Position numbers and translations under genes: made by a program
The notes under the pieces: model-generated
Seen by the model: the letters and a program-made list of their open reading frames with translations, nothing else
Told to the model about the DNA's origin: nothing
Databases searched by the model: none
In this document: positions 415 to 18,622 of the stretch, one piece after another
How the letters are laid out: the number at the start of each line of letters is the position of its first letter
Numbering within the stretch: position 1 is the stretch's first letter
NCBI GenBank assembly: GCA_964436975.1
Contig: CAYTET010000008.1
Span: forward strand, 1 to 22,428
Length of the DNA stretch: 22,428 nt
Origin: an uncultured Erysipelotrichaceae bacterium
GTDB taxonomy: Bacteria; Bacillota_I; Bacilli_A; Erysipelotrichales; Erysipelotrichaceae
Reading direction: 5' to 3'

Positions 415-428
415 AAGGAAGCTTAAAG

Positions 429-1220: not shown

Positions 1221-1240
1221 GCGCCGAAAGGAGAATAAGG

Positions 1241-3169: not shown

Positions 3170-3189
3170 AAAAAGGGAGATACACAAAT

Positions 3190-4228: not shown

Positions 4229-4277
4229 CCGGGAGGCTGCCCTGATCAAGGTGTCAGCAGCAGCCTCCTGGCTTTTG
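4229..4277 (+). terminator. Rho-independent terminator after iolG
   Basis: The inverted repeat CCGGGAGGCTGC (4229-4240) pairs with GCAGCCTCCTGG (4260-4271), including one G-U pair. Inner CTGA/TCAG pairing is possible, and CTTTTG follows. Confidence 0.6.
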
Positions 4278-4285
4278 AAAATCTC

Positions 4286-4299
4286 TGCAAACGTTTGAA
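4286..4299. promoter_or_regulatory. LacI-family operator-like palindrome TGCAAACGTTTGAA upstream of the ABC permease
   Basis: The 10-bp perfect palindrome CAAACGTTTG (4288-4297) extends to a 14-mer with one mismatched pair. It lies about 32 bp upstream of the preferred permease start at 4331. The AAACGTTT core is typical of LacI/PurR/RbsR-type operators. Confidence 0.45.
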
Positions 4300-4330
4300 T
4301 GAATTTTCATGGAAAAGGAAAGGAGCAGAA

Positions 4331-6157
4331 ATGAGCAAAAAAAAGCAGATTAAACATCCGCTAACAAAGAAGCGTCTTAAGAATTTGATCAAGAGTGTGC
4401 TTACCAATCCGTTCAATCTGATTGTCTTCATTACCCTGATTGCTTTGTTCTGTCTGATTGTCATCCCTCTGCTGCAGATGGTTTCAAATACTTTCATCGT
4501 TGCCAAATCCGAGGTGCGCCGCATCGGCCTGCCGGCTGGCAGTTTCACTCTTTATTATTGGCGTTACATGCTGTTCAGCAGCATGTCGTCATCAGTGATG
4601 TGGACACCTTTAAAGCATTCACTGGTCATCGGCATCTTTACCGTTCTGGTATCGGTGCCGCTGGGATCCATTCTGGGCTGGATTGTGGTAAGAACTGATA
4701 TGCTGGGCAAGAAGCTTATCGGCATGCTGGTCGTCATTCCTTACATGATCCCGTCATGGTGCAAGGCCATGGCCTGGCTGTCGGTCTTCCGCAACCAGAC
4801 TTCCGGATCACTGGGCTTTCTGGCCGGACTGGGGCTTAACGTACCTGACTGGCTGGCCTACGGGCCGGTGGCGATAGTTCTGTGTATGTCGCTGCACTAT
4901 TATGCTTTCTCTTATATCAACGTTTCCTCGGCCTTAAGGTCCATCAACTCTGAACTGGAGGAAATGGGCGAGATATGCGGCGCTTCCAAGCCGCAGATCC
5001 TTAAGTCGATTACCATCCCGCTGGTTCTGCCCAGCGTGCTGTCGTCCATTGTCATGACCCTGTCCAAGTCAATCGGGGCCTACGGCGTGGCGGCCAATCT
5101 GGGCAACCGCATCGGCTATTTCACCCTGGCGACCAAGATGAAGACCTTCATCAACGGCACCACCTACAATGCCGTCGGCTATGCCATGAGCATTGTGCTG
5201 ATCGTGCTGGCAGCCCTGATCATCTTCGGCAACCAGAAGATCGTCGGTGTCCGCAAGTCCTATGCCACTATCGGCGGCAAGGGCGGCCGGACCAACCCGA
5301 TGAAGTTGGGCAGTGCCAAATACTGGCTGATGGGCTTTCTGGTTATCTTTCTGTTCTTCTCGATGGTTGCCCCGATGTTCATTCTGGTCATGGAAACATT
5401 CCAGATCACTACCGGCAACGGCTATGGCGCCGACAACCTGACGCTGTATTACTGGATAGGCACGGTTGACAATGCGCCCAAATACATAAACTATCCGGGT
5501 ATATTCCGCAACCCTAATTTCTTCAAGGCCTTATGGAATACTATCCGGCTGACCTTTACCGTTTCGATTCTTACCGCCATCTGCGGCCAGTTCTTAGGCT
5601 ATATCTCAACCCGCGGACGCGGCAAGTGGTACGGCACGCTGACGGAGCAGCTGGTCTTCATTCCCTATCTGATGAGCGGCGTGGCTTTCTCCGCCATGTA
5701 TTTCTCGATGTTCTCGGTTCCGCATCTGGGCGGCCTGATTCCGTCGCTTTACGGCACCTTCGCCCTGATTGTGCTGACATCAACGGTCAAGCATTTCCCG
5801 TTTGCCAGCCGCACCGGCACAGCCAACATGATGCAGATTTCCACCGAACTGGAGGAATCCGCCACCATCAACGGAGCCAATTTCTGGCAGCGCATGGGCA
5901 AGATTGTCCTGCCGCTGGCCAAAAACGGCTTTATCTCCGGGTTTATGCTGACGTTTATCAGCGTGGCTAAGGAACTGGACCTGATCATCATCATGATGAC
6001 CCAGGAGACCCAGACCCTGTCCTATGTGGCTTTCACTTATTCACAGGATGGCTACCCCCAGATGTCAGATGCGATTTCAGTATGTGTCCTGCTGTTTATC
6101 CTGGTCTGCTATATCATCGCCAACAAACTGGGTGCTGATATCGGCAAGAGCTGGTAA
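4331..6157 (+). CDS. ABC transporter permease, fused two-domain type (iron(III)/AfuB/FbpB-like)
   Basis: About 608 aa with many TM helices. There are two EAA-loop motifs (EEMGEICGASKPQILKSITIPL and EESATINGANFWQRMGKIVLPL), showing an internal duplication of the binding-protein-dependent permease domain. The start at 4331 (MSKKKQ) is preferred over 4295 because AAGGAGC lies 7 nt upstream. Confidence 0.85.
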   Translation: MSKKKQIKHPLTKKRLKNLIKSVLTNPFNLIVFITLIALFCLIVIPLLQMVSNTFIVAKSEVRRIGLPAGSFTLYYWRYMLFSSMSSSVMWTPLKHSLVIGIFTVLVSVPLGSILGWIVVRTDMLGKKLIGMLVVIPYMIPSWCKAMAWLSVFRNQTSGSLGFLAGLGLNVPDWLAYGPVAIVLCMSLHYYAFSYINVSSALRSINSELEEMGEICGASKPQILKSITIPLVLPSVLSSIVMTLSKSIGAYGVAANLGNRIGYFTLATKMKTFINGTTYNAVGYAMSIVLIVLAALIIFGNQKIVGVRKSYATIGGKGGRTNPMKLGSAKYWLMGFLVIFLFFSMVAPMFILVMETFQITTGNGYGADNLTLYYWIGTVDNAPKYINYPGIFRNPNFFKALWNTIRLTFTVSILTAICGQFLGYISTRGRGKWYGTLTEQLVFIPYLMSGVAFSAMYFSMFSVPHLGGLIPSLYGTFALIVLTSTVKHFPFASRTGTANMMQISTELEESATINGANFWQRMGKIVLPLAKNGFISGFMLTFISVAKELDLIIIMMTQETQTLSYVAFTYSQDGYPQMSDAISVCVLLFILVCYIIANKLGADIGKSW

Positions 6158-6182
6158 TGGCTAGGAAGAGAAAGGAAACAAT

Positions 6183-7301
6183 ATGAGCAGAATCGAACTA
6201 AAGCACATTGATAAATTCTACGGTGAAAACCATGTTCTGCGCGATCTCAATCTGACTATCGAAGACGGCGACTTCATGACGCTGCTGGGTCCGTCAGGCT
6301 GTGGAAAGACCACGACATTAAGAGTTATTTCCGGTTTGGAAGAGCCGCAGAATGGTACAATGACTATAGACGGTGTTGAGATGATCAATGCCGCCGATGC
6401 ATACTTTGCCGAGCCCAGCAAAAGAGGGCTGAATCTGGTTTTCCAGTCTTATGCCCTGTGGCCGCACATGACGGTCAAGGAGAATATCGCCTTTGGTCTG
6501 AAGATTCAGAAACTGCCTAAGGCTGAAGTTGAAGCCCGCGTCAAGGATGCGCTGCGGATGATGCGGATCGAGGAATACATCGACCGCTATCCCAACGAAC
6601 TTTCCGGCGGCCAGCAGCAGCGTGTCGCTATTGCCCGCGCTGTGGCCTCCAATCCCAAGCTGCTGCTGCTGGATGAGCCTTTGAGCAATCTGGACGCCCG
6701 GCTGCGCATTGACATGCGCTCGGAGCTGCAGCGGCTGCATCATGAATTGAAGACGACAATTATCTATGTCACCCATGACCAGGTCGAAGCTCTGACCATG
6801 TCAACCAAGATTGCCCTGTTCAAAGAGGGTGAACTGAGTCAGGTGGCCACGCCCATGGAGCTGTACCGCAACCCGATTGACCTGCAGGCCGCCGATTTCA
6901 TCGGCAACCCGCGGATCAACTTCTTAAAAGGCGATGCGGAAATGAAGGGCGGCAAGCTGCATGTTCACTGCGAACTGCAGGATTACGTCTTTGACAAGGA
7001 AGACATGACCGATGAGCCGATTCCAGAAGGAAACTTTGCGGTAGTGGTAGCCATCCGGCCGGAGCAGGTTCACATTGAACAGCAGGCCAGTGCGGACACC
7101 ATGCCGGTTGAGGTTTATGCTTCCCAGCCGGCCGGTTCGGAAACCCTGGTTTCCTTAAGAGCCGGTTCATCGGATTTCTTATCCAAGGAGATTGGTCTGG
7201 CGGAATATAAGATCGGCCAGCAGGTCAATGTCAGAGTCAATCCCAAGCGCGTCAATATCTATGATGCCGCTTCAACCCGTTTGATCAAACGCGCTCAGTA
7301 A
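6183..7301 (+). CDS. ABC transporter ATP-binding protein (MalK/FbpC/PotA-like, with a C-terminal TOBE-like domain)
   Basis: Walker [10 protein letters not shown], signature [14 protein letters not shown], Walker [13 protein letters not shown], and H-loop THDQ. A roughly 130-aa C-terminal regulatory/OB-like extension is present. Confidence 0.9.
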
Positions 7302-7400
7302 GCCGGGCCCAGCCAGCCGGTATTACTGGAATAAACGCTTGATATAGCTTAGGGAAGTATTTTCAGCGCTAAAGCTGAAAGAAAGGAGAAATGTCAGTTT

Positions 7401-8639
7401 ATGAAGAAGTTTAGTGTTCTGTTAGTTGTTGCCATGATGCTGCTGACGGCTCTGTCCGGCTGCACATTTGGCACCGGCACCGGCGGCAAGACCGTTGATG
7501 CCCAGTTGGGTCCTATCTACGATGATTACAGTGATATGACCGATGAGCAGCTTTATGAATTAGCCCAGAAAGAGGGCGGCCAGATCAATATCTATGCCAC
7601 CTCTTCCAAGATGTTGAAAGAGGAAGAACCTTTTGAAACATTGTATCCGGGTCTGGATGTTGTCGTTACCGACTTAGACCAGGACGAAGTTCTGCAGAAG
7701 GCCGTTACCGAGCATAAGACCGGAAATATCACCGGTGATGTTCTGCAGGCCAAAGATGTCAACGGCGACGTTTTCTACAACTATTATGAGGAAGGCATTG
7801 TTGAGACATTCTATCCTAAAGATCTGTGCGCCTATATTGACGAAGATCTGCTGAAGTATGGTTATCCGCTGTATGCCGGCGAAGCTTTCTGGTTCTATAA
7901 CACCGAAGCTTTCCCTGACGGCTCCCCGCTGACCAACTGGTGGCAGCTGCTTGAGACCAATGCCGACGGCACCCAGAAGTTTATCATCTACACCAAGGAA
8001 ATCGGCCAGGAAACGTCTTATCTGTCCCTGTTTGCCAGTTTCATTGTCAATTCCGATCAGATGGCCGCAGCCTACAAGGAAGAATACGGCAAGGATCTGG
8101 AATACACCTATGATGCTTCGGCCTTTGATTTTGAAGCTCCGAAGAACAATGCCGGTGTCGAATTCTTATGGCGCTTCAGCCAGCTGAAGATGACATTCAT
8201 CGGCGATGGTGATGAATTGGTCTTAGCCGTCAATAACGGCAAGAGCACCGAGCATCCTACTGTTGCGTTATGCTCAGCCGGCAAGCTGGAAAACCGTGAT
8301 AAATCCGGTTATGCCATTGCCTGGTGCACCAATCTGAAGCCTTATACAGGTCTGAAGTATTGCGAATATCTGTATGTTGTCAAAGGCTGTGACAACCCGG
8401 CCGGCGCCCGTCTGTTCATCCGCTATATCACGGGTTCAGGCGATGACGGCAGCGGTTTGAAGCCGTTTACCAAGGTTGGCAACTGGCCGGTCCGCAGTGA
8501 TGTCAAGGATAAGAAGAATGAGATCACCCTTGATGAGGCCGGTGCTATTGATGCCGATCTGAAGAGCATCTATGATCAGTTCATTGATACTCAGGATATG
8601 TGGAATTACTGGCTGGATAAGAATCCCAATATGAAATAA
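7401..8639 (+). CDS. ABC transporter substrate-binding lipoprotein (family-1, iron(III)/AfuA-like fold)
   Basis: The signal peptide has a lipobox (LTALSGC) followed by a Gly/Thr linker. QINIYATSS...YPGLDVVVTDL resembles the N-terminal lobe of Fbp/Afu/thiamine-type binding proteins. It is the last gene of the permease-ATPase-SBP unit. Confidence 0.8.
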   Translation: MKKFSVLLVVAMMLLTALSGCTFGTGTGGKTVDAQLGPIYDDYSDMTDEQLYELAQKEGGQINIYATSSKMLKEEEPFETLYPGLDVVVTDLDQDEVLQKAVTEHKTGNITGDVLQAKDVNGDVFYNYYEEGIVETFYPKDLCAYIDEDLLKYGYPLYAGEAFWFYNTEAFPDGSPLTNWWQLLETNADGTQKFIIYTKEIGQETSYLSLFASFIVNSDQMAAAYKEEYGKDLEYTYDASAFDFEAPKNNAGVEFLWRFSQLKMTFIGDGDELVLAVNNGKSTEHPTVALCSAGKLENRDKSGYAIAWCTNLKPYTGLKYCEYLYVVKGCDNPAGARLFIRYITGSGDDGSGLKPFTKVGNWPVRSDVKDKKNEITLDEAGAIDADLKSIYDQFIDTQDMWNYWLDKNPNMK

Positions 8640-8656
8640 GCTTGGTTTATAATTTC

Positions 8657-8690
8657 CGGCTTGCGGGACAGTTTGCTGTCCCGCAAGCCG
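8657..8690 (+). terminator. Perfect 15-bp stem hairpin after the binding-protein gene
   Basis: CGGCTTGCGGGACAG (8657-8671), loop TTTG, then CTGTCCCGCAAGCCG (8676-8690). It lies 18 nt after the stop codon. No downstream T-tract is present, so it may act as a terminator or as an RNA-stabilising element. Confidence 0.55.
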
Positions 8691-8715
8691 CCATGTCAGG
8701 AGATAGCAGAGCTAA

Positions 8716-9306
8716 ATGGTAAAAAGAGTCGATAAAGGCAACCAGTCTTCCGCAAGAGAGAAGACGGAAACCTTCAAAGAGAAATGGACACGGCGGGGCA
8801 AAAAGTTTTTGGGCATCTTTGCGTTTACGGAAAACGGCAAGCCTAAAAGCAGCCTTTTGATTTACACCTTCTGTCTGAGCTTTGTCTTTGTGGTGCTGCT
8901 GATAGTGGCCTTCTGGTTTCTTTCGGAAGCCCAGAACGCCTATCTTACGGCGCTGCCGGTTTTCTGGACCAATCTGGCCGTATCTTTGGGCATGAGTGCT
9001 TTCTGCATGCTGACCGGCTATATAATGCACCACTTTATGAAGGACAAGCGGCTGCTGTTTGTGACTTATGTCTGGCTGGCGGTCTATGATGTTGTTACTA
9101 TCATTGCCCAGGCTATCATGCTGGCCAGTGAACCGGGCGGCTTTGGCATCTTCATGACCTTCTTTGTCTGGGTTGCCATCATTCCGGTAATATGCGGACT
9201 GTTTTTCTTCTACTGGCTGTTCAAGCGTGACTACAAGCCGCCGGTAGAACCCGGACCGACTGATCCGGTGGCAGAGACAATGAATAAATATGTCAATCAC
9301 AGGTAA
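8716..9306 (+). CDS. Hypothetical integral membrane protein (4 predicted TM helices, Lys-rich cytoplasmic N-terminus)
   Basis: Four hydrophobic segments: LLIYTFCLSFVFVVLLIVAFWFL, LPVFWTNLAVSLGMSAFCMLTGYIM, LLFVTYVWLAVYDVVTIIAQAIML and IFMTFFVWVAIIPVICGLFFFYWLF. AGGAGA lies about 12 nt upstream. The stop is 3 nt before the next gene. I recognise no family. Confidence 0.55.
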   Translation: MVKRVDKGNQSSAREKTETFKEKWTRRGKKFLGIFAFTENGKPKSSLLIYTFCLSFVFVVLLIVAFWFLSEAQNAYLTALPVFWTNLAVSLGMSAFCMLTGYIMHHFMKDKRLLFVTYVWLAVYDVVTIIAQAIMLASEPGGFGIFMTFFVWVAIIPVICGLFFFYWLFKRDYKPPVEPGPTDPVAETMNKYVNHR

Positions 9307-9309
9307 GAT

Positions 9310-10275
9310 ATGTTAAAAGTGCATTTTATCAATGTCGCCGAAGGCGATGCAACTTTATTTGAATTCAGTCAGCCTGACGGCATCTACCGTCTGCTGATTG
9401 ATGACGGCCATGCCCAGCTGGAACCGACTTCCGGCTCGGCCCGCAATACCGCCCTGCAGTATCTGCAGAACAGGCAGATCAGCCATCTTGACGCGCTGGT
9501 CATCACCCATCTGCATCTGGATCACTTCGGGGCCACGGCTGCTTTAGCCGAAAACATCCGGATTGATGATGTCTATGCTTCTTATTTCCCCCCCCGGGCC
9601 GATTCCTACATTGAAAATGCGGATCAGCCGGATAAGGAAAGACGCAAGCTGCAGGACTGTCTTGATCTGTGGGCCCGCAACACGGCCGCTTTGCGCCAAG
9701 CCGGCAGCCGGCTGCACACGGTTGACCAGGACACCAATATTGCCACCGCCAACGGTCTGGATATCAGGCTTATCTGCCCGTCGGCGCTAGCCCTGCAGAT
9801 GCAGCGCAAGCTGTTTGATGACATGTATGCCGGCAAGCCGCTTCAAGATAAGAATATCTTCTGGGCATCTAAATCCCGCAATCCGGCTTCGCTGCGTACT
9901 GAAATTGTCTATGCCGGCCGCCGCATTGAAATGGCTGCCGACTGCTACGGGCGGATCTGGGAGAATGAGGAGCTGTTGCCCTGTGACATTCTGAAGATTC
10001 CGCATCATGCCGATGCCAAGTCACTGACCGCTAAGCTGGTGGACAAACTGCATCCGCGCTATGCGGTCGCCACCTGCGGCAAGGATTACATTGAGCGCAA
10101 AGACCGGCCTTCCGCCAAGATGATTGCTTATCTGACGGCGGTGGATACCCGGGTCTATTTTACGGATTCATTCGCTTTTAACGGCCAGCCTGCAAACGTT
10201 TGGCCGGCAGTGATTTTTACGATTGACGACGATGGCACAATAAAAGCCCCCCAGAGTGAAGGGAAGAAAGGATAA
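9310..10275 (+). CDS. MBL-fold metallo-hydrolase (ComEC-C-terminal-like / beta-lactamase superfamily II)
   Basis: The N-terminus VHFINVAEGDATLF...LLIDDG and the HxHxDH motif (VITHLHLDHFG) are typical of the family, as is the later KIPHHAD. Its stop is 2 nt before the start of the following HAD gene. Confidence 0.8.
   Translation: MLKVHFINVAEGDATLFEFSQPDGIYRLLIDDGHAQLEPTSGSARNTALQYLQNRQISHLDALVITHLHLDHFGATAALAENIRIDDVYASYFPPRADSYIENADQPDKERRKLQDCLDLWARNTAALRQAGSRLHTVDQDTNIATANGLDIRLICPSALALQMQRKLFDDMYAGKPLQDKNIFWASKSRNPASLRTEIVYAGRRIEMAADCYGRIWENEELLPCDILKIPHHADAKSLTAKLVDKLHPRYAVATCGKDYIERKDRPSAKMIAYLTAVDTRVYFTDSFAFNGQPANVWPAVIFTIDDDGTIKAPQSEGKKG
10191..10204. promoter_or_regulatory. Intragenic copy of the operator-like motif (TGCAAACGTTTGGC) near the 3' end of the MBL gene
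   Basis: The 13-mer CTGCAAACGTTTG (10190-10202) is identical to 4285-4297 and contains the same 10-bp perfect palindrome. It lies 76 bp upstream of the HAD gene start at 10278. It also encodes PANVW, so chance cannot be excluded. Confidence 0.3.
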
Positions 10276-10277
10276 CC

Positions 10278-11030
10278 ATGATTACTACGGTGATGTTTGA
10301 TATGGGCGGAACGCTCGAGGATATCTGTGTTGATGAAGCCTCTAAGCAGGCCGCTAACAGGCAGCTTTATAATATTCTGCTGGACTGCGGCATGGCGGCT
10401 GATACCGACCCGGCGGTTCTGCGCCAGCAGACTGAAAAAGGCTGGATCGACTATGGCTGTTACCGCGACAGCGTTGATGTCGAACTGAAGCCGGAGCATA
10501 TCTGGTGCGATTATGTACTGAAGGGCTTTGACGTCGATATGGCCAAAGTCAAGGCTAACAGCGAAAGAATCGCCAAGATGTGGGAATTAACTTATTATCA
10601 CCGTTCGCTCAGACCGCGCGTGGCGGAAATGCTGGAAGGTCTGCAGTCATTAGGCCTGCAGCTGGGCGTCATCAGCAATACGGCCGCCATGTACCAGGTC
10701 TTCTCTTCGCTGCAGGAGTACGGCATCCGCGATTATTTCAAGGATGTGACCCTGTCATCGGTGACCGGACTGCGCAAGCCCTGCCCCGACATCTTTGAAG
10801 TGTCCCTGCACCAGCTGCAGGCTTCAGCGGATGAGTGCTTCTATGTGGGCGATACCATTTCCCGGGATATTGTCGGTTCCAAGCGGGCCGGCTTTGCCGG
10901 AGCCATCCAGATCTATTCCCATCTGACGGCCATGAAGGATATCGCGGATAAATACGAGTTCAAGCCTGACTATGTCGTCGAAGACATCTATGATGTCTAC
11001 CCGCTGCTGAAAAAAGTCTTAGGCAAATAA
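10278..11030 (+). CDS. HAD-superfamily hydrolase, subfamily IA-like (paralogue A)
   Basis: Motif I FDMGGTL (nucleophile Asp8, Gly at +2), motif II GVISNT, motif III RKP, and motif IV YVGDTISRD. An alpha-helical cap insert lies between motifs I and II. Confidence 0.85.
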   Translation: MITTVMFDMGGTLEDICVDEASKQAANRQLYNILLDCGMAADTDPAVLRQQTEKGWIDYGCYRDSVDVELKPEHIWCDYVLKGFDVDMAKVKANSERIAKMWELTYYHRSLRPRVAEMLEGLQSLGLQLGVISNTAAMYQVFSSLQEYGIRDYFKDVTLSSVTGLRKPCPDIFEVSLHQLQASADECFYVGDTISRDIVGSKRAGFAGAIQIYSHLTAMKDIADKYEFKPDYVVEDIYDVYPLLKKVLGK

Positions 11031-11050
11031 AAACCCGTGGTTACGGGTTT
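11031..11050. terminator. Bidirectional hairpin between the convergent HAD-A and lacI-family genes
   Basis: AAACCCGT (11031-11038), loop GGTT, then ACGGGTTT (11043-11050). On the minus strand it is followed by TTTTTATTT, making a good terminator for the regulator. It overlaps the regulator stop codon. Confidence 0.6.
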
Positions 11051-12081
11051 GAAGGCTGATCCGGCTTAGGATAGCCGGCTAACGGAGCGCAGGTCGACCG
11101 CTTCATCAGCGAGGGCATCAGGATCCGGTGGGTATAGCCGTCCAGATTATTCTGGATCTTGTCGACCAGGATATTGACGCATACGGATGCCAGCATTTTG
11201 ACCGGCTGTTCGATAGTGGACAGGTTGATCCGCGGCAGGGAGCTGTCCCGGATATTGTCAAAGCCTAAAAGGGAAAGATCTTCCGGGATCCGCAGCCCGA
11301 CTTCCTCAGCGGCCTGCATGACGCCAAAGGCGTTGGTATCGGTTGAGGCAAAGACGGCCGTGTAATTGCGGGGCTGGCTGAACATCTGCTTGGCCAGCAG
11401 ATAGCCGTATTTAGTGGATGAAGAAGTGAAAGTGTTGTTGCAGTACTGCGGATTCAGGCCTAAATCCTTGCAGGCCGCCGCATAGCCTTCCGCTCTGAGC
11501 TGATGGGTTATGCTGGCCTTGCGCTGGCCGAAGTACAGAATACGGCGGTGGCCCAGGCTGTACAGATATTCCACACCCATGTAGGCCCCGCGGAAATTAT
11601 CCACGGAAACATAGTTTTCCGGAGCATCGCGCATGTTCTCCCCGACAAAGACAGTGGGGACCTGGGCAATCCGCTCGCACAGATTGTCATAGCTTTCCGG
11701 TCCGACCGGCACCAGGATGATGCCGTCGACCTGCCGGCCGACCATCAGTTCAAAAAGGCTGTTCTCCTGCTGGGGGTCATAAGCCGAATTGCACAGAATG
11801 ATATTGTAACCCATGTTGCGGGCCTGCCGGTCGATATGATAGGCCAGTTCGGACATATAGGGGTTGTTGACCCCGGGCAGAATAAGACCCAGCAGCTTGG
11901 TGCTTTTGATGACCATGGCCCGGGCCACGGTATTGACCGTGTAGTTCATGTCCTTGCAGGCGGCAATAATGCGCTGGTAGGCATCCGGACTGACATTGGC
12001 ACTGCCGGACAAGGCCCGTGAGACCGTTGAATAGGATACGCCGGCCTGTTTGGCCACGTCCTTGATGGTAATTCGTTTCAT
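11041..12081 (-). CDS. LacI-family transcriptional regulator
   Basis: The N-terminal HTH is MKRITIKDVAKQAGVSYSTVSRALSG...VSPDAYQRI, followed by a periplasmic-binding-protein-like sugar-binding core. The start at 12081 (GGAGC RBS upstream) is preferred over the ORF-track start at 12162, which would add 27 non-conserved residues. Confidence 0.9.
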   Translation of the reverse strand: MKRITIKDVAKQAGVSYSTVSRALSGSANVSPDAYQRIIAACKDMNYTVNTVARAMVIKSTKLLGLILPGVNNPYMSELAYHIDRQARNMGYNIILCNSAYDPQQENSLFELMVGRQVDGIILVPVGPESYDNLCERIAQVPTVFVGENMRDAPENYVSVDNFRGAYMGVEYLYSLGHRRILYFGQRKASITHQLRAEGYAAACKDLGLNPQYCNNTFTSSSTKYGYLLAKQMFSQPRNYTAVFASTDTNAFGVMQAAEEVGLRIPEDLSLLGFDNIRDSSLPRINLSTIEQPVKMLASVCVNILVDKIQNNLDGYTHRILMPSLMKRSTCAPLAGYPKPDQPSNP

Positions 12082-12280
12082 GATAGCTCCTGTTATGCAA
12101 CAAAATGCACACGATAAACAGATTTTATGACATTTATTTGCATAATACAAGAGCCCCTGCAAATTGTTTCATTGCTCAAAACGGCCCAAAAAGGCCGTAA
12201 ATACCGTATTTTACGCTATAAAACAAGCTTGAAAAAGAACAGTCATGCCATAAATCAGGCATCTATTATGACTGAATTTG

Positions 12281-12296
12281 ATAAAAACGTTTTCGT
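12281..12296. promoter_or_regulatory. LacI-family operator-like site ATAAAAACGTTTTCGT upstream of the HAD operon
   Basis: The perfect 10-bp palindrome AAAACGTTTT (12284-12293) lies 30 bp upstream of the HAD-B start codon, in the divergent regulator/operon intergenic region. It shares the AAACGTTT core with the sites at 4286 and 10191. Confidence 0.4.
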
Positions 12297-12322
12297 TAAA
12301 CCACTTCAGGAGGGGGAAAGTT

Positions 12323-13078
12323 ATGATTAAAGCCGTCTTGTTTGACCTGGGAGGAACCCTGCACACGGCCAGCAGTCCGGCCGGCCGGCCGGAATGGTTT
12401 GCCCGCCGGCTGATTGACCGGCTGGCTGATTATGGCATCATTATTGATGTTTCCACCGCCCAGATGGCCGAAATACTGCATAATAACAGTGAGGAATACA
12501 AGCATGCCAGCGAAATTGATCTCAAGGAACTGCCGGCCGCCCGTATCTGGAGCGAATATTACCTGCGCCAGTTCAACATCAGTGAAAAGACCCTGGCTCC
12601 GATTGCCGAAGAACTGAGTTTTATTTATGATTACGAAAGACCGCTGGTCATGCGCCGGCCCCATCTGAATGAAACGATGAGCGGGTTAGCGGCAATGGGC
12701 ATAAGAATGGGCATGATTTCCAATATCATCTCCCGGTCGGTCGTTTCCCACTTTCTGATGGAATATGACATCGAAAAGTATATGGAGTGCATCGTCATGT
12801 CTTCGGTGACCGGTATCCGCAAGCCTTCGGCTGAAATATTCCGGGTTGCGGAAAAGGACATGGACCTGGCTCCCGAGGAGATGGCCTATGTCGGCGATAC
12901 GATTTCGCGGGATGTGCGCGGCGTGCGCAATGCCGGCTGGAAGATGATGATCCAGATCAACAACCCGGCGATTGCCTTTCGGGATGCCGGTCTGGACAAG
13001 GATGCGTATAAGCCTGACTATATGATCAGCGATCTCAGTGAAGTCGTTGAAATCATCCGTCAGGCCAATCAGCAGTAA
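12323..13078 (+). CDS. HAD-superfamily hydrolase (paralogue B)
   Basis: Motifs FDLGGTL, GMISNI, RKP and YVGDTISRD. The start at 12323 (MIKAVLFDLGGTL) is chosen because AGGAGGGGG lies 7-15 nt upstream and motif I then sits at the usual N-terminal position. Its closest relative in the window is paralogue A. Confidence 0.85.
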   Translation: MIKAVLFDLGGTLHTASSPAGRPEWFARRLIDRLADYGIIIDVSTAQMAEILHNNSEEYKHASEIDLKELPAARIWSEYYLRQFNISEKTLAPIAEELSFIYDYERPLVMRRPHLNETMSGLAAMGIRMGMISNIISRSVVSHFLMEYDIEKYMECIVMSSVTGIRKPSAEIFRVAEKDMDLAPEEMAYVGDTISRDVRGVRNAGWKMMIQINNPAIAFRDAGLDKDAYKPDYMISDLSEVVEIIRQANQQ

Positions 13079-13114
13079 AAAACATGGCAGCCAGATAAAT
13101 AGGGAGGTAAAACC

Positions 13115-13849
13115 ATGAAAAACAATATTGATACCATTTTCTTCGATGTCGGCAATACCCTGCGTTATGTTGTTCCCGATGCCGCCTTTTCGGCCCAGGC
13201 CGATCAGCAGCTGATGGAGCTGGTCAAGACAACCGCCAGCCACGAAGAGTTTTTTGCCGAACTGAATGCCAACTGGAAGAAATACCGCAAATGGGCCAAG
13301 GACAATCTGCTGGATGTCTCCGAGATGGAACTGTGGATGCAGTTTCTGCTGCCGGAATATGATCCGGCCATCATTGCCCCCAATGCCCCCCGGCTGACCC
13401 GGCTGTGGCGCGACCATGACGGCCGCCGGGTGCCGCATGATGATGTGGATTCTACATTGAGAGAACTGACCAACCGCGGCTACAAACTGGGCATCATTGC
13501 CAACACCATTACCGAAACCGAGATTCCGGACTGGATGTGCCATGACCAGGTTGCCGACTGTTTCAAGACGGTCATTCTGTCCTCCAAGGTCAGACTGCGC
13601 AAGCCTGATCCGGCCATCTATCTGCTGGGCGCCCGCTGCATCGATTCCAAACCGGAAGACTGCGCCTATGTGGGCGACAATGCCGTCCGGGATGTGGACG
13701 GGGCGGTTGATTCCGGCTATGGCGCCATGATCCTGTTTGAGTTTGAAGGTGTGGCCGTTGACCGGGACGGGGTATCACCCAATCACCAGCCGGATTACAA
13801 GATCGGCCATATCGGCGATCTGCTCGATCTGTTCGGGCCCAGAGGTTAA
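13115..13849 (+). CDS. HAD-superfamily hydrolase (paralogue C)
   Basis: Motifs FDVGNTL, GIIANT (Ala where the motif II Ser/Thr is expected), RKPDPAIY and YVGDNAVRD. RBS GGGAGG. It shares RGYKLGII and the YRKW cap motif with paralogues D and E. Confidence 0.85.
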   Translation: MKNNIDTIFFDVGNTLRYVVPDAAFSAQADQQLMELVKTTASHEEFFAELNANWKKYRKWAKDNLLDVSEMELWMQFLLPEYDPAIIAPNAPRLTRLWRDHDGRRVPHDDVDSTLRELTNRGYKLGIIANTITETEIPDWMCHDQVADCFKTVILSSKVRLRKPDPAIYLLGARCIDSKPEDCAYVGDNAVRDVDGAVDSGYGAMILFEFEGVAVDRDGVSPNHQPDYKIGHIGDLLDLFGPRG

Positions 13850-13852
13850 ATA

Positions 13853-14575
13853 ATGAAAGACATCAAGGGTGTTTTCTTTGATTTAGGCGGGACGCTGCGG
13901 ATTGCCCAGGAAGTTCCCGAACATATTCAGAAAGCCAAAAGGGCCATGGCTGATCTGGCCGGCGTTACTGATGAAAATGCCTTTTTGGAGATGATTGATA
14001 AACGCTATGAGCCCTACCGCAAATGGGCCATGACGGAATATAAGGAATGCGGGGATTTTGATCTGTGGCATATCTGGCTGCTGCCGGACATGCCGGAAGA
14101 AGAACTGCGGCCGGTCTGCCACCAGCTGACTTACCAGTACCGCCAGGTCAAAGGCCTGCGCCATCTGGTCACCCATGGTCTTGAAGTCATCAAAACGCTG
14201 CACCAGCGCGGCTACAAGCTGGGCATCATTTCCAATCTGATCGGTGAAAACGAAGTCGCCGACTGGCTCAGGGATGATGATCTGGCCCAATATTTTGATT
14301 CGGTAGTCCTTTCATCCATCTGCCATATCCGCAAGCCGGATCCGGCTATCTATGATATCGGCTGTGCCGAATTAGGTCTGAAGCCGGGCCAGTGCGCTTC
14401 GGTGGCCGACAATCTGAGCCGGGATTTTACCGGGGCTAAGGCGGCCGGCATCGGCGTCAATATTCTGTTCATCAGTCCGGAAAAGCTGGCCGGCAAAACG
14501 ATAACTGAAGAAAACCGCCCGGACATTATCATCAATGATTTCCTTGAATTGCTGGACCTGCCTTTTCTGCAGTAA
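13853..14575 (+). CDS. HAD-superfamily hydrolase (paralogue D)
   Basis: Motifs FDLGGTL, GIISNL, RKPDPAIY and SVADNLSRD. The start is 3 nt after the stop of paralogue C. Confidence 0.85.
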   Translation: MKDIKGVFFDLGGTLRIAQEVPEHIQKAKRAMADLAGVTDENAFLEMIDKRYEPYRKWAMTEYKECGDFDLWHIWLLPDMPEEELRPVCHQLTYQYRQVKGLRHLVTHGLEVIKTLHQRGYKLGIISNLIGENEVADWLRDDDLAQYFDSVVLSSICHIRKPDPAIYDIGCAELGLKPGQCASVADNLSRDFTGAKAAGIGVNILFISPEKLAGKTITEENRPDIIINDFLELLDLPFLQ

Positions 14576-14589
14576 GGAGAAGAGATAAA

Positions 14590-15318
14590 ATGGCTGATAT
14601 AAACACGCTGTTCTTCGATTTAGGCGATACCTTCCGCGTCATCCGTCATGATGATGAATACTCCCGGGCGGCCCGGGCGCTGATCTGTGAAAAACTGGGG
14701 GTTACCGAAGATCCGGATAAGTTCTATCATGAAGTCATCGAGCCGCGCTATGACAAATACCGGCAGTGGGCTTTGACTTATTACTGTGAAGCCCCGGAAA
14801 AAGTGCTCTGGACCCGCTGGCTGGCGTATGATTATCCTAAGGATGTCGTCGAGGCGGCGGCTTCCGAGCTGACTTTTGCCTACCGGCGCACCAAAGGGGA
14901 GCGCGTGGTTACCGAAGGCGGCATTGAAACGGTTAAGGAGCTGTTTGCCCGCGGCTATAAGCTGGGCATCATCTCCGATCTGGTCGGTGTCCATGAGGTT
15001 GACCAGTGGCTTGACCACGACCAGCTGCGTCCTTATTTCAAGACGGTGCAGCAGTCCTCGCTCTGTCTGATCCGCAAGCCCCATCCGGCGATTTACTATT
15101 ATGCCATGAATGAGATCGGCTCATCCGGGGAGCAGTGCTGCTTTGTCGGCGATAACCTTAACCGCGATATCATCGGGGCCAAGGCGGCCGGCATCGGCAT
15201 GACCATCGGGGTGCGCTATCCGGGCAAAAAAGAGCAGGAAATCACCCCGGAAAATAAGCCTGATCAGTTTATAACGCATTTTTCGCAGCTGCTGGATATT
15301 TTCCCAGCGCGCGGTTAG
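14590..15318 (+). CDS. HAD-superfamily hydrolase (paralogue E)
   Basis: Motifs FDLGDTF, GIISDL, RKPHPAIY and FVGDNLNRD. RBS AAGGAGAAG. Confidence 0.85.
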   Translation: MADINTLFFDLGDTFRVIRHDDEYSRAARALICEKLGVTEDPDKFYHEVIEPRYDKYRQWALTYYCEAPEKVLWTRWLAYDYPKDVVEAAASELTFAYRRTKGERVVTEGGIETVKELFARGYKLGIISDLVGVHEVDQWLDHDQLRPYFKTVQQSSLCLIRKPHPAIYYYAMNEIGSSGEQCCFVGDNLNRDIIGAKAAGIGMTIGVRYPGKKEQEITPENKPDQFITHFSQLLDIFPARG

Positions 15319-15332
15319 GAGGCAGATAGGAT

Positions 15333-16898
15333 ATGGAAAAAGAAATGAATCATGGCGGTGCGGCCCTGGCCAAAGCCGTCCGTAAAGCTTATGAGCAGAA
15401 TCAGACGGATTACTCACTGGCCCCGCTGTGTCTGGTTGATGAAAACGACCAGCCGGTGGGCAAAATAAAAGACGGCGATGCGGTTATCTTCTGCTGCCGG
15501 CGGGGCGAAAGGGAAGTTGAACTGACCGAAGCCTTCACCCAGCCTGATTTTGACAAGTTTGACCGGCCGTATCTGAGTCAGCTGCAGTTCGGCATTCTGA
15601 CGATGTATCATGAAAAATTCAAGAATCTGCCGATTGCCTTTGCCCCGGAGAAGGTGGTCATGCCGCTGGCCCAGGTCATAGCCCAGGCCGGCCTGACCCA
15701 GTTTCACTGCTCGGAATCCGAAAAGTTTGCCCATGTAACCTTCTTCTTCAACGGCGGCTATAACCAGCCCTTTGAAAAAGAGACGGATACCTGTGTGCCT
15801 TCACCCAAGGGCGTGCCGTTTGACACCGTGCCGGAATTAAGCCTGCCGGCCGTCGCCGCCAAGGTGGAAGAAGCCGTTGATACCGGCTATGATTTCATTC
15901 TGACTAACTTTGCCAACGGCGATGTTATCGGCCATACTTCCAACAGCGATGCCAAACTGCTGGCCGCCGCGGCCATCAGCAAGTATGTTGATAAAGTCGC
16001 CCATTATGCGCAGGATCACGGCTATTTGGTTGCCATCACGGCTGACCACGGCAACATTGAAACCCTGCGGACAGAAGCCGGCAAGCCGCATGTGGCCCAT
16101 ACCTGCAATCTGGTGCCCTTTATCGTGCTGGATCCGCAGCACCGGGAGATCAAGCTGCGGGACGGCTCCCTGAAGGATGTTGCCCCGACAGTGCTGTCGG
16201 TGCTGGGTCTGGATGCCCCGGCGGAAATGAGCGGACAGTCCCTGATTGAAACGGCTGATATCCATAACAAGAAAATGATACTGATTATTCTGGATGGCTG
16301 GGGTCTGGGCAGCCAGGATGACAATGACGCCATCTATCTGGCGGATACACCGGGCTGGGACAAACTGATGGCGGATTATCCGCATTCCAGCTTAGCCGCC
16401 AGCGGCCTGTATGTCGGCCTGCAGGACGGCAAGCCGGGCAACTCCGAAGCCGGCCACTGCAATATGGGCGCCGGCCGGGTCGTCGAGCAGGATGATGTCC
16501 GCATGGACAATGCCATCAAAGACGGCTCTTTCAAGACCAATCCGGTTTTCCTGAAGCTGATCGACCATGCCAAACAGTGCGGCAGCCTGCATCTGATTGC
16601 GCTGCTGACCGAAAAGTCCAGCCACGGCTGCATCGCTTATCCGCTGATGCTGGCGGAAATGGCTAAAGAAGTTCCCCATGTCTATTTCCACATCATCTTT
16701 GACGGCCGCAGCACCGAACCGGGCAGTGCCCCGGCGCTGCTGGAAAAGCTGGATGGCCAACTGGCCCAGATTGGAACCGGCCTGGTGGTTGACGGCATCG
16801 GCCGCGGCATTATTCTGGACCGCGACGGCAACTATGCCCGCATTGAAACGGGCTACCGGGAACTGACCGAAGGTAAGGGGATCCCTTATCATTTATAG
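15333..16898 (+). CDS. Circularly permuted homologue of 2,3-bisphosphoglycerate-independent phosphoglycerate mutase (alkaline-phosphatase superfamily phosphomutase; substrate unknown)
   Basis: 521 aa. Residues 1-305 align with the C-terminal ~290 aa of canonical iPGM through the blocks DGDAVIFCCRRGER, ESEKFAHVTFFFNGG, NFANGDVIGHT, ITADHGN, KPHVAHTCNLVPF and LKDVAPTVLSVLGL. Residues 313-521 align with the canonical N-terminal ~225 aa through KKMILIILDGWG, GNSEAGHCNMGAGR, SLHLIALL, FDGRS and GRGIILDRD. RBS AGGAGG. Confidence 0.85.
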   Translation: MEKEMNHGGAALAKAVRKAYEQNQTDYSLAPLCLVDENDQPVGKIKDGDAVIFCCRRGEREVELTEAFTQPDFDKFDRPYLSQLQFGILTMYHEKFKNLPIAFAPEKVVMPLAQVIAQAGLTQFHCSESEKFAHVTFFFNGGYNQPFEKETDTCVPSPKGVPFDTVPELSLPAVAAKVEEAVDTGYDFILTNFANGDVIGHTSNSDAKLLAAAAISKYVDKVAHYAQDHGYLVAITADHGNIETLRTEAGKPHVAHTCNLVPFIVLDPQHREIKLRDGSLKDVAPTVLSVLGLDAPAEMSGQSLIETADIHNKKMILIILDGWGLGSQDDNDAIYLADTPGWDKLMADYPHSSLAASGLYVGLQDGKPGNSEAGHCNMGAGRVVEQDDVRMDNAIKDGSFKTNPVFLKLIDHAKQCGSLHLIALLTEKSSHGCIAYPLMLAEMAKEVPHVYFHIIFDGRSTEPGSAPALLEKLDGQLAQIGTGLVVDGIGRGIILDRDGNYARIETGYRELTEGKGIPYHL

Positions 16899-16922
16899 AA
16901 GTGAGCAAAGGAGAATATAATC

Positions 16923-17645
16923 ATGAATAGTGCAGTAGATTTATCCAGTCTGACCCTGACGCCCTGGGAGATTATCATCCGGCTGGCGGGGGCCATGGTA
17001 ATAGGGGCCATCATCGGCACCGAGCGGGAATACACCCACCGGCCGGCCGGCATGCGGACCCATATGCTGGTGGCGCTGGGATCATGCGCCGTAATGGTGA
17101 CCAGCCAGCTGATGTTTGTGCAGTATCACGCTTTCGGGGCTTCCCCGGATCCGGCCCGGCTGCCGGCGCAGGTTATCGCCGGGGTTGGCTTTTTAGGCGC
17201 CGGCACGATTTTAAGGGACGGCACCTCCATCAAGGGTCTGACCACGGCGGCCAGTGTCTGGGCGGTGGCCTGTCTGGGCATTGCCATCGGCGCCGGCTAT
17301 TATATTCTGGCGGTGGCCGGTACGGCCTGCATGCTGATAACGCTGACTTTCTTTGAGTGGCTGCAGAAAAAGCTGATCCACAGCCGCTATGAGACCTATC
17401 TGTTTCTGGTGCAGTCAACCAATGTCGTGGTGACCTTAGCCCAGATCAACAAGCTGGCCATCGAAGTCGAAGCTTCCGTCAGCAGCATCCAGGTCAATGA
17501 AATAAACGATAACGGCAACTACAGCATCAACTTCCGGACTAATTTTTCCGGCCGGCATGCCTCCACGCGGATGCAGCAGTTCTTAATGGATCTGACCAGT
17601 GATGAATGCACGGTCTCCATTAAATCGGAGCAGATCAGACTGTAG
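16923..17645 (+). CDS. MgtC/SapB-family membrane protein
   Basis: The N-terminal block IIRLAGAMVIGAIIGTEREYTHRPAGMRTHMLVALGS is the family signature. It has 4-5 TM helices followed by a soluble C-terminal domain. RBS AAAGGAGAA. Confidence 0.85.
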   Translation: MNSAVDLSSLTLTPWEIIIRLAGAMVIGAIIGTEREYTHRPAGMRTHMLVALGSCAVMVTSQLMFVQYHAFGASPDPARLPAQVIAGVGFLGAGTILRDGTSIKGLTTAASVWAVACLGIAIGAGYYILAVAGTACMLITLTFFEWLQKKLIHSRYETYLFLVQSTNVVVTLAQINKLAIEVEASVSSIQVNEINDNGNYSINFRTNFSGRHASTRMQQFLMDLTSDECTVSIKSEQIRL

Positions 17646-17665
17646 CCTGTTTATCCGATAATTCA

Positions 17666-17715
17666 GGCAAAGATAACGGCTCTGGGCCAGCCGGCTGTCT
17701 TTGCCTTGTTTTATA
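17666..17715 (+). terminator. Possible leaky terminator or processing hairpin between the MgtC-family and kinase genes
   Basis: GGCAAAGA (17666-17673) pairs with TCTTTGCC (17698-17705) around a structured GC-rich loop that contains the palindrome CAGCCGGCTG. TTGTTTTAT follows. The loop is large, so strength is uncertain. Confidence 0.35.
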
Positions 17716-17737
17716 ACAAGAAAAGGAGATTTCCATT

Positions 17738-18622
17738 ATGAAGCAGCAATATGATTTAATGCTTGTCGGACCGGCTTCCCGGGACGAAAATATCGACTAT
17801 ACCGGGGCTGTCGACAAGTCCATCGGCGGGGCCGTGACGTTCTGCTCGGCTTCAGCCCAGGCGGCCAGCGGCAGTGTTTTTGCGGCAGTTGTCGCCGCCC
17901 CCAATGAGCCGGATGTCATGGATTCCATTATTCTGGATGATGATGACAAGATGCTGATTCCGTCTTCGGTAACCACCTCGATCCGCAACCAGTACTTCAC
18001 GGCGGACCGGGAAAGACGCGAGTCCAAGTGCATTGCCCAGTCTGATCCGGTCACCCCGGATAAGATTCCGGCCGGCCATTTCAAGATGTATCATTTAGCC
18101 GGACTTTTATACGGCGATTTCCCCAACGAGCTTATTGTTGATCTGGCATCCAAGGGCCAGCTGGCCGGGGATGCCCAGGGCTTTTTAAGACACAATGAAA
18201 ACGGGGCGATGGTTTTCCATGACTGGGCCGACAAAAAGGAAATGCTGAAGCACTTTGCCTTTCTGAAAACAGACGCTTTGGAAGCCCTGACTCTGACCGG
18301 CTTTGAAGACCGGGCCAAGGCAGCTGAACAGCTGTACCAGTGGGGGGCTAAAGAAGTTATGGTTTCCCATAACAGCGAGATAATGGTCTATGATGGCAAC
18401 AAGGTCTATACCTGCCCGATCAAAGCCCGCAACCTGTCCGGCCGGACCGGCCGGGGTGACACGACGACCGGGGCTTATCTGGCCCGCCGGCTGGACGGTG
18501 ATGACGTTGAAACAGCGCTGCTGTATGCGACCGCCTGTGTTTCTTTGAAGATGGAAAAAGTCGGCGTGTTCAGCCACAGCCGGCAGGATGTCTACGATTA
18601 TATTGCCCAGTTTTACCGCTGA
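17738..18622 (+). CDS. PfkB-family carbohydrate kinase (divergent)
   Basis: 294 aa. It has an N-terminal LMLVGPASRDENIDY...SIGGAV beta-strand/GG motif and a C-terminal PfkB signature-2-like GRTGRGDTTTGAYLA (the GxGD anion hole). RBS AAAGGAGA. Confidence 0.8.
   Translation: MKQQYDLMLVGPASRDENIDYTGAVDKSIGGAVTFCSASAQAASGSVFAAVVAAPNEPDVMDSIILDDDDKMLIPSSVTTSIRNQYFTADRERRESKCIAQSDPVTPDKIPAGHFKMYHLAGLLYGDFPNELIVDLASKGQLAGDAQGFLRHNENGAMVFHDWADKKEMLKHFAFLKTDALEALTLTGFEDRAKAAEQLYQWGAKEVMVSHNSEIMVYDGNKVYTCPIKARNLSGRTGRGDTTTGAYLARRLDGDDVETALLYATACVSLKMEKVGVFSHSRQDVYDYIAQFYR

Follow-up and report, generated by a model that had tools for sequence, protein, structure and literature searches.

Why should an ABC importer, five HAD-family proteins, a relative of phosphoglycerate mutase and a PfkB-family kinase be lined up beside the genes of inositol catabolism? 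The question is raised by positions 4286 to 18622 of contig CAYTET010000008.1, assigned to an uncultured Erysipelotrichaceae bacterium (assembly GCA_964436975.1); the whole stretch analysed, 22,428 nucleotides long, is called the window here. It matches identical gut metagenome contigs from a Clostridia organism, and the closely related proteins found for its genes carry the labels Oscillospiraceae, Dysosmobacter or Oscillibacter. Our first-pass annotation had proposed that these genes import and process a phosphometabolite that feeds the iol pathway. What stood of that proposal is one co-conserved system tied to inositol through three kinds of adjoining catabolic gene set, a TM0415-type inositol kinase and, in one related species, a surface phosphatase that carries the operator. 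Our data support the locus being a single co-regulated, co-conserved system, predicted to be under LacI control. As to its function we tentatively favour, at somewhat short of an even chance, a LacI-controlled regulon that imports a phosphorylated inositol compound, likeliest phytate-derived (lower) inositol phosphates (InsPs), and processes it in the cytoplasm to feed iol catabolism. Phytate-derived InsPs are abundant candidates in the gut, rumen, digesters and sediments.

Searches for related loci were anchored on the mutase and on the PfkB kinase. The LacI repressor, the HAD array and the permuted mutase are conserved together in dozens of loci, which come from Firmicutes of the Oscillospiraceae type and from Anaerolineae; in the Firmicutes the kinase goes with them. 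Many independent contigs, with mutases 54-81% identical, show the arrangement again. The co-localisation of the genes is not chance. The first-pass annotation had staked its proposal on co-conservation in other genomes, and this is what we find, LacI, HAD1 to HAD4, mutase and kinase recurring together. In the fullest arrangement (the window, the related loci L004, L007, L012, L013 and L087-L089, and 11 metagenome loci) the permease, ATPase, solute-binding protein (SBP) and small membrane protein genes are followed by HAD0, with optional genes for a metallo-beta-lactamase-fold (MBL) protein and MgtC; LacI is divergent; then come HAD1 to HAD4, the mutase, optionally MgtC, and PfkB, with a membrane H+-pyrophosphatase gene beside PfkB in at least 11 of these loci. 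PfkB is present wherever the contig extends beyond the mutase. The importer, small membrane protein and HAD0 occur in most loci that reach far enough upstream, and are absent from L004, L094 and L100.

A reduced variant, seen in 18 human-gut loci, has HAD1-like, permease, ATPase, SBP, EEP-family phosphatase (nine loci), HAD0-like and MgtC genes in one operon, divergent from PfkB, LacI and PHP esterase genes and without the mutase and HAD2 to HAD4 (for example L136, 1565-16631; also L127, L137 and L141). One species with this variant encodes an SLH-anchored purple acid phosphatase of 1045 amino acids, with the operator, here a perfect palindrome, 117 nt before the start of the gene; L111, L114, L118 and L147 are without the surface enzyme. 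In a third group of eight loci, all without HADs, PfkB stands with iolEBDG, MBL and MgtC (L159) or after transketolase genes. In L159 (3001-17670) the TM0415-type kinase heads the iolE-B-D-G operon; before it lie LacI, MBL, a TctCBA tripartite transporter and a 525-amino-acid protein without a family, and after it an Fe-alcohol dehydrogenase and MgtC.

Family searches on the window recovered every gene of the earlier component list at the position given there, with starts slightly corrected. Between 37 and 21452, LacI is the only gene that is not encoded on the plus strand. The features are as follows.

37-4221, plus strand: iolE (3' part), iolB, iolD and an iolG-like dehydrogenase (NCBIfam TIGR04379 and TIGR04378; Pfam TPP and GFO_IDH_MocA)
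4231-4268, plus strand: G+C-rich hairpin then a T-rich stretch, a likely terminator read from the sequence
4284-4301: operator-like site 1, TCTGCAAACGTTTGAATG, ~30 nt upstream of the permease ribosome-binding site
4331-6157, plus strand: fused two-domain ABC permease of 608 amino acids, with two BPD_transp_1 domains
6183-7301, plus strand: ABC ATPase with a TOBE_2 domain, from family searches
7401-8639, plus strand: lipoprotein SBP with a cluster-D (Fbp/MctA/PotF-like) fold, from an AlphaFold2 (AF2) model and Foldseek
8657-8690, plus strand: perfect 15-bp stem with a 4-nt loop, between the SBP and small membrane protein genes
8716-9306, plus strand: small membrane protein of 196 amino acids with four predicted helices and no family match
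9310-10275, plus strand: MBL-fold metallo-hydrolase with an intact HxHxDH motif (Pfam Lactamase_B)
10189-10206: operator-like site 3, CCTGCAAACGTTTGGCCG, at the 3' end within the MBL gene, ~80 nt ahead of HAD0
10278-11030, plus strand: HAD0, a HAD hydrolase of the D-x-G type, linked to the transporter operon
11041-12081, minus strand: LacI-family repressor, divergent from the HAD operon
12280-12297: operator-like site 2, GATAAAAACGTTTTCGTT, ~25 nt upstream of the HAD1 ribosome-binding site
12323-13078, 13115-13849, 13853-14575 and 14590-15318, plus strand: HAD1 to HAD4, tandem paralogous D-x-G HADs
15333-16898, plus strand: circularly permuted homologue of the phosphoglycerate mutase iPGM, a candidate inositol-phosphate mutase
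16923-17645, plus strand: MgtC-family membrane protein, recurrent and variable in position
17738-18622, plus strand: TM0415-type ribokinase-family (PfkB) kinase, from the match to PDB 1VK4/5YSP and its signature residues

The mechanical open reading frame (ORF) starts at 4295 (TTG), 12278 (TTG) and 12162 were too long, and were corrected to 4331, 12323 and 12081 from the positions of ribosome-binding sites and from gene calls on 100%-identical contigs (L090 for the permease). The hairpin at 4231-4268 likely separates the iol operon from the transporter operon; it was not recovered by a simple terminator scan, and the sole addition from the simple promoter and terminator scan was a convergent terminator between HAD0 and LacI. 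Beyond the kinase, an ADP-ribosylglycohydrolase gene (18809-20196) is split into two ORFs by a single-base deletion, being intact as a 462-amino-acid gene on three otherwise identical contigs, so that the split is either a real frameshift or an assembly error. It is followed by a nucleoside-use operon with a Bmp/PnrA-type nucleoside SBP (20295-21452), ABC genes and two inosine-uridine nucleoside hydrolases (L001, 14964-21566). A 134-amino-acid ORF on the minus strand (21830-22234) is without a Pfam or NCBIfam match.

That these operons are regulated together is suggested by their shared operator. The core AAACGTTT occurs at 4289, 10194 and 12285, three matches against 0.23 expected, and none of 100 shuffles reaches three; the 13-mer CTGCAAACGTTTG is common to sites 1 and 3. 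Most related Firmicute loci have the same core ~30-50 bp before HAD1, whereas L094 and L100 are without an exact match. The operator-like sites first noticed before the transporter and the HAD operon are enriched over shuffled sequence, and the one before HAD1 is kept in position in most Firmicute relatives. The repressor itself has helix-turn-helix and periplasmic-binding-fold domains and a palindromic operator precedes the target operons, as in a LacI-family regulon. It would be expected to bind the operators before the transporter genes, HAD0 and HAD1, and to respond to an inducer.

What links this regulon to inositol? Across two phyla, the genes next to the HAD-mutase operon belong to three different catabolic sets of inositol type. 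In the Anaerolineae the LacI, HAD and permuted mutase genes are joined by an archaeal-type phosphoglycerate mutase (PGM) and the same importer type, and the module adjoins iolG/E/D/B (L011), iolB/iolD with a transaldolase-family gene and an H+-pyrophosphatase (L173), or a UxaE/SDR/LarA-type set (L172). HAD domains there are fused to each other or to an IolE-like (AP_endonuc_2) TIM barrel, and L173 (8434-21530) has both HAD-HAD and HAD-AP_endonuc_2 proteins; L172 (8485-16789) and L174 (8484-16798) carry two extra proteins of 400 amino acids, each with a C-terminal uridine-kinase/PRK-like domain and an N-terminal half without assignment. Because three inositol-type routes adjoin it in two phyla, the simplest reading is that the product of the HAD-mutase operon is inositol or a close cyclitol. 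That the imported compound would be a multiply phosphorylated form of inositol is suggested by an SBP importer of the type used for charged molecules, by five HAD orthogroups, by MBL, PHP and EEP folds, and by the co-regulated surface phosphatase in one species of the reduced variant. The freed inositol would then pass into the adjacent iol operon, its presumed sink.

In the window iolE-B-D-G is the end of a longer operon, which continues upstream on identical contigs (L090/L091, 1658-12981) in the order GAPDH-like, phosphoglycerate kinase (PGK), split transketolase, LarA-like racemase, malic-enzyme-like, and then iolE, iolB, iolD and iolG. The genes iolC, iolJ and iolA were not found in the window or in the 10 kb upstream. 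Their absence, together with the presence of the GAPDH-like, PGK, transketolase, LarA-like and malic-enzyme genes, suggests an aldolase-independent route. From this gene content we infer that transketolase could cleave 2-deoxy-5-keto-gluconate, the C4 aldehyde being oxidised via an acyl phosphate to malate with a gain of ATP, and the malate being racemised and decarboxylated.

An iol operon without iolC, iolJ and iolA within 10 kb, but with GAPDH-like and PGK genes, could also be explained quite differently. The HAD-mutase-kinase operon might serve free inositol or its ring-opened intermediates, with PfkB as a pyrophosphate (PPi)-dependent substitute for IolC (a 2-deoxy-5-keto-gluconate kinase), the mutase as a true 3-phosphoglycerate/2-phosphoglycerate mutase that is induced together with the iol operon's gap and pgk paralogues, and the HADs trimming side products or regulating. 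PfkB also stands where this would have it, immediately ahead of iolEBDG (L159) or following transketolase genes (L162-L164, L169). According to published work on Dysosmobacter welbionis, that bacterium ferments free inositol via 2-deoxy-5-keto-gluconate 6-phosphate despite lacking IolJ and IolA; counting against such a function, it is said there to import free inositol through another transporter, of IbpA type (PMC13311982). We consider this explanation unlikely, as it leaves no role for five separately conserved HAD orthogroups or for a cluster-D importer of the kind whose SBPs bind anions or cations, and as the reduced variant has that importer in one operon with HADs and an EEP phosphatase.

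Returning to the import of a phosphorylated inositol compound, the transporter had been labelled an Afu/Fbp-type importer, and both the fused permease and the SBP fold agree with this. Cluster-D importers combine a fused double permease with an SBP of Fbp/PotD-like fold, which is the combination encoded here. Over its full length the permease weakly resembles fused permeases of the PhnU2 type (100 bits, the cut-off being 593), and the ATPase scores 316 bits with the PhnT2 model (cut-off 458). No Pfam or NCBIfam family matches the window copy of the SBP (7401-8639), whose homologues carry SBP_bac_1; its AF2 model (pLDDT 87) finds FbpA, MctA, IbpS and PotF as best Foldseek matches, at a TM score of ~0.55, ~15% identity and probability 1.0. 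The 15-bp hairpin after the SBP gene is likely an mRNA-stabilising or attenuating element and may keep the level of SBP above that of the downstream genes. In related loci a gene of 175-198 amino acids takes the position of the small membrane protein. Overall, a cluster-D ABC importer is present and would bring in the substrate, its ligand being presumably the phosphorylated compound.

Weak matches of the permease and ATPase to 2-aminoethylphosphonate transporter models belong to a wider set of observations that could point away from inositol. The system might handle some other phosphoester (nucleotides or nucleic-acid fragments, phosphoglycerates or bisphosphoglycerates, sugar phosphates, phosphonates), the inositol link being secondary. 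The HADs weakly match pyrimidine nucleotidase, phosphoglycolate phosphatase and PpaX pyrophosphatase models, the MBL protein is similar to nuclease domains of ComEC, and in the Chloroflexi loci there are also an archaeal-type PGM that scores above its NCBIfam cut-off and two uridine-kinase/PRK-like kinases. Immediately downstream in the window lie the ADP-ribosylglycohydrolase, the Bmp nucleoside-type SBP with its ABC genes, and the two nucleoside hydrolases. All the transporter and HAD matches, however, fall far below curated cut-offs, and inositol-type genes recur beside the module in two phyla; taken with the enzyme comparisons given below, this makes such a substrate distinctly unlikely in our estimation. 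Two of its forms were rejected outright. A phosphonate (2-aminoethylphosphonate) reading is opposed by the transporter scores and by family searches that found none of the PhnW, PhnX, PhnA or C-P lyase genes in the window, and a nucleoside or ADP-ribose function as part of the system by the downstream operon not being conserved beside it in any other locus examined. The phosphonate and bisphosphoglycerate alternatives that the first-pass annotation had kept in play thus found no support.

If InsPs are imported, the HADs would be the enzymes to dephosphorylate them. All five are present as described at first, with the motifs D-x-G-x-T, RKP and (G/A)D...RD in common. They are 25-31% identical to each other and 43-74% identical to their orthologues, each forming a separate orthogroup. 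The residue two after the nucleophile (Asp+2), the general acid/base of HAD phosphatases, is Gly, D-x-G-x-T being found in all five HADs of the window and in 129 of 129 related HAD domains. Motif I is accordingly not the DxDx(T/V) of HAD phosphatases; the motif III Lys and the acidic Mg2+-binding pair of motif IV are present and invariant. The nearest solved relatives are PH1655 and NANP, of phosphatase type, and PH0459 (D-F-V-G-T), which is dehalogenase-like. We take the Mg2+-binding motif IV to argue for phosphoryl chemistry, and the five distinct D-x-G HADs might each remove one phosphate, position by position.

The mutase had been recognised as permuted, and alignment bears this out: residues 16-305 align to residues 220-509 of the Geobacillus stearothermophilus iPGM 1EJJ, and 312-519 to 3-213, at ~40% identity over both halves. 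The old iPGM termini are joined, new termini lie inside the transferase domain near residue 215, and the canonical domain order is lost. A scan of the genome collection with patterns from the mutase alignment also matched canonical iPGMs; among the matches listed, the mutase was permuted in 7 of 80 loci and the other 73 were used as permutation control. Its halves match these 73 canonical loci in swapped order and 13 permuted relatives as one colinear segment. In the fold search with the AF2 model (pLDDT 83) every match was an iPGM, with roughly half of its length aligned, the outcome to be expected when an order-dependent aligner is given a permutant. For the permuted iPGM no paper was found in a literature search.

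Ser62 and the Mn ligands D12, D403, H407, D444, H445 and H462 are kept, as are the phosphoglycerate-binding residues R153, R185, R191, R261, R264 and K336, the latter being what one would expect if the operon served free inositol with a true phosphoglycerate mutase. Against that, the mutase is always attached to the HAD array, following D-x-G HAD genes, and never to gap, pgk or any glycolytic context; in Butyricicoccus pullicaecorum (L008) a single HAD adjoins it. Parts of the pocket are also changed, D154 to Ser, F260 to Arg and Y258-N259 to Cys-Cys with an altered 119-125 loop, and these changes are invariant in 32 relatives. Canonical iPGMs are present in at least some Oscillospiraceae genomes, including Oscillibacter sp. 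(L030, L036, L064 and L065), which suggests that the permuted enzyme may be a specialised paralogue. Its closeness to iPGM, set against an E value of 1e-8 for phosphopentomutase, also speaks against other phosphoesters. With an intact phospho-serine/metal centre and an altered pocket it may shift phosphate between neighbouring hydroxyls, for instance the phytase-resistant axial 2-phosphate to position 1.

What was first called a divergent PfkB kinase is indeed of that family, and can now be placed more closely as a full-length homologue of the PPi-dependent inositol kinase TM0415 (E 2e-37; PDB 1VK4 and 5YSP); against ribokinase the value is only about 1e-3 to 1e-5, which counts against another class of phosphoester. 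TM0415 of Thermotoga maritima was characterised by Nagata et al. as a PPi-dependent myo-inositol 1-kinase (PMC5931981). Its donor determinants are the RxGRGD motif, which contains R229, R232 and the catalytic D234, together with K171, F221 and M266, of which F221 and M266 are large residues that occlude the ATP pocket; inositol is contacted by D11, N78, Q141 and R145 (PMC5931981). The window kinase and seven relatives keep K171, R229, R232, D234, K265 and M266, with GRTGRGD invariant, and F221 is replaced by Ile, Val or Leu, hydrophobic but smaller. All four inositol contacts are invariant in this set, which sits poorly with a kinase for ring-opened intermediates of free inositol. On these residues the kinase is predicted to be PPi-dependent and to act on inositol, and would interconvert inositol 1-phosphate plus phosphate (Pi) and inositol plus PPi. 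A membrane H+-pyrophosphatase gene adjoins the module in at least 11 Firmicute loci, next to PfkB, and in one Chloroflexi locus, so PPi may well be part of the pathway's economy. Put together, and still unproven, the scheme would have the five HADs take off the five equatorial phosphates, the mutase move the axial 2-phosphate to position 1, and the TM0415-type enzyme handle the resulting Ins(1)P.

PPi-dependent kinases are typically reversible, and PPi-phosphofructokinase, which runs in reverse in gluconeogenesis, offers a parallel. By our own estimate the reaction of Ins1P and Pi to inositol and PPi is thermodynamically feasible at high Pi and low PPi, and a kinase running this way would explain why the operon holds an ion pump that hydrolyses PPi. 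The HADs, for their part, might pass their aspartyl-phosphate to Pi rather than to water, as the residue that normally activates water is absent. A pathway that conserves the ester-bond energy of InsPs as PPi in both ways, and uses it to drive the membrane H+-pyrophosphatase, is an improbable extension of the favoured reading, something of a long shot. A PPi-type kinase with H+-pyrophosphatase and MgtC as recurrent neighbours could also be turned round, into an anabolic or homeostatic module that builds or remodels InsPs from inositol with PPi as donor, as a store of phosphate and Mg2+, with the HADs as PPi-dependent phosphotransferases and MgtC as homeostatic partner. D-x-G HADs could conceivably take phosphate from PPi without a general acid, and the Chloroflexi loci have two further kinases. 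The genes are laid out, however, as in a catabolic regulon, with a LacI repressor, an importer that depends on an SBP, and inositol degradation genes next door; the regulon of the reduced variant takes in a surface phosphatase, and no bacterium is known to us to store inositol polyphosphates. A storage function strikes us as very improbable.

The remaining parts would be accessory to cytoplasmic InsP breakdown. The nearest solved relatives of the MBL protein are the MBL nuclease domains of ComEC and the phosphorylcholine esterase Pce/CbpE, both phosphodiesterases, making it a candidate phosphodiesterase. It is found in L012, L087, L110, L123 and L159, and is absent from L088 and L089. The idea that MgtC and MBL are fixed parts of the system did not hold; both are recurrent but optional, and the position of MgtC varies. 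Outside the window the membrane H+-pyrophosphatase, the PHP esterase and the EEP phosphatase are also recurrent. MBL, with the PHP and EEP enzymes in relatives, might act as accessory phosphoesterases, and MgtC may buffer the Mg2+ and phosphate load.

Several points weigh against the import and dephosphorylation of InsPs. PfkB, MBL and MgtC occur with iolEBDG but without HADs or a window-type importer (L159), and these three may belong to inositol catabolism proper. No histidine acid, beta-propeller, PTP-like or purple acid phytase is encoded in the window by family searches, a purple acid phosphatase being seen only in the one human-gut species with the reduced variant. The SBP fold search returned only generic cluster-D matches and no inositol-phosphate-binding structure. 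TM0415 has a Km for inositol of 12 mM, so that its true acceptor is uncertain and may differ (PMC5931981), as would also suit a free-inositol function of the operon, and a kinase inside a dephosphorylating route calls for a special explanation. Phosphatase activity of the HADs is an assumption, given the missing general acid/base and solved relatives that include both phosphatase-type and dehalogenase-like proteins, and the mutase, which has lost none of the Arg and Lys residues that bind phosphoglycerate, might still use it as a substrate. It also should be considered that all the proteins are acidic by charge analysis; with a pI of 4.3 for the SBP and ~5 for the HADs they are unlike binders of naked, highly anionic InsP6, and a metal complex or lower InsPs would fit better.

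In seeds, feed, soils and sediments, organic phosphorus is present mainly as phytate and lower InsPs, of which gram amounts reach the gut; known bacterial use of phytate relies on secreted or surface phytases followed by uptake of inositol. A widespread cytoplasmic route, if true, would shift the credit for phytate turnover among the organisms of gut and digester. The system is widespread in gut Oscillospiraceae relatives, among them prevalent butyrate producers of the Dysosmobacter/Oscillibacter group, and in Anaerolineae. It would also provide functions for two uncharacterised groups, the D-x-G HADs and the circularly permuted iPGM, and a physiological setting for an orphan PPi-dependent inositol kinase. 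Since the H+-pyrophosphatase recurs, the idea that energy is conserved from phosphate esters can be tested directly, and should energy indeed be conserved, phytate-derived esters would be an energy source for a fermenting anaerobe, beyond phosphorus and carbon. Papers on gut phytate and inositol describe secreted phytases, inositol uptake and iol-type fermentation (PMC7618129, PMC12482443, PMC13311982), and the HADs, the mutase, a window-type importer and the PPi kinase go unmentioned in the text examined. No published description of the system was found in the literature on HADs, mutases, ABC importers or PPi kinases in phytate or inositol metabolism. The system is an undescribed variant of organophosphate and inositol catabolism, built around two uncharacterised enzyme groups and an orphan PPi kinase.

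How does it compare with known systems? Its HADs share the subfamily-IA fold, the nucleophile Asp, the motif III Lys and the motif IV acids with the TIGR02253/TIGR02252 group (NANP, PH1655) and PH0459, and differ in having Gly at Asp+2, in scoring below the family cut-offs and in forming five paralogues in a fixed order. The mutase has the Ser, metal ligands and Arg/Lys residues of iPGM (1EJJ) but another chain order and a partly different pocket. Cluster-D importers of the Afu/Fbp kind (FbpABC, the sugar-phosphate importer AfuABC, and the metal-citrate importer with MctA) have a similar fused permease, TOBE-type ATPase and SBP fold, whereas the window SBP is ~15% identical to any solved protein, ~70 residues longer and without a curated family. 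With TM0415 the kinase has in common RxGRGD, K171, K265/M266, the catalytic Asp and the four inositol residues, and both genes lie in inositol catabolic neighbourhoods; the window kinase differs in the change of F221 to Ile, Val or Leu and in being embedded with HADs and a permuted mutase, often beside an H+-pyrophosphatase, operon neighbours that go unmentioned for TM0415 in the literature examined. Finally, iolG, iolE, iolD and iolB are the same as in the Bacillus-type iol pathway and in phytate use by extracellular phytase, as in Mitsuokella jalaludinii (PMC7618129). Here dephosphorylation would instead be intracellular, following import, and carried out by HAD-type enzymes without a known phytase class. 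Like phytase-based phytate use (PMC7618129), the proposed system would link phytate-derived compounds to inositol fermentation.

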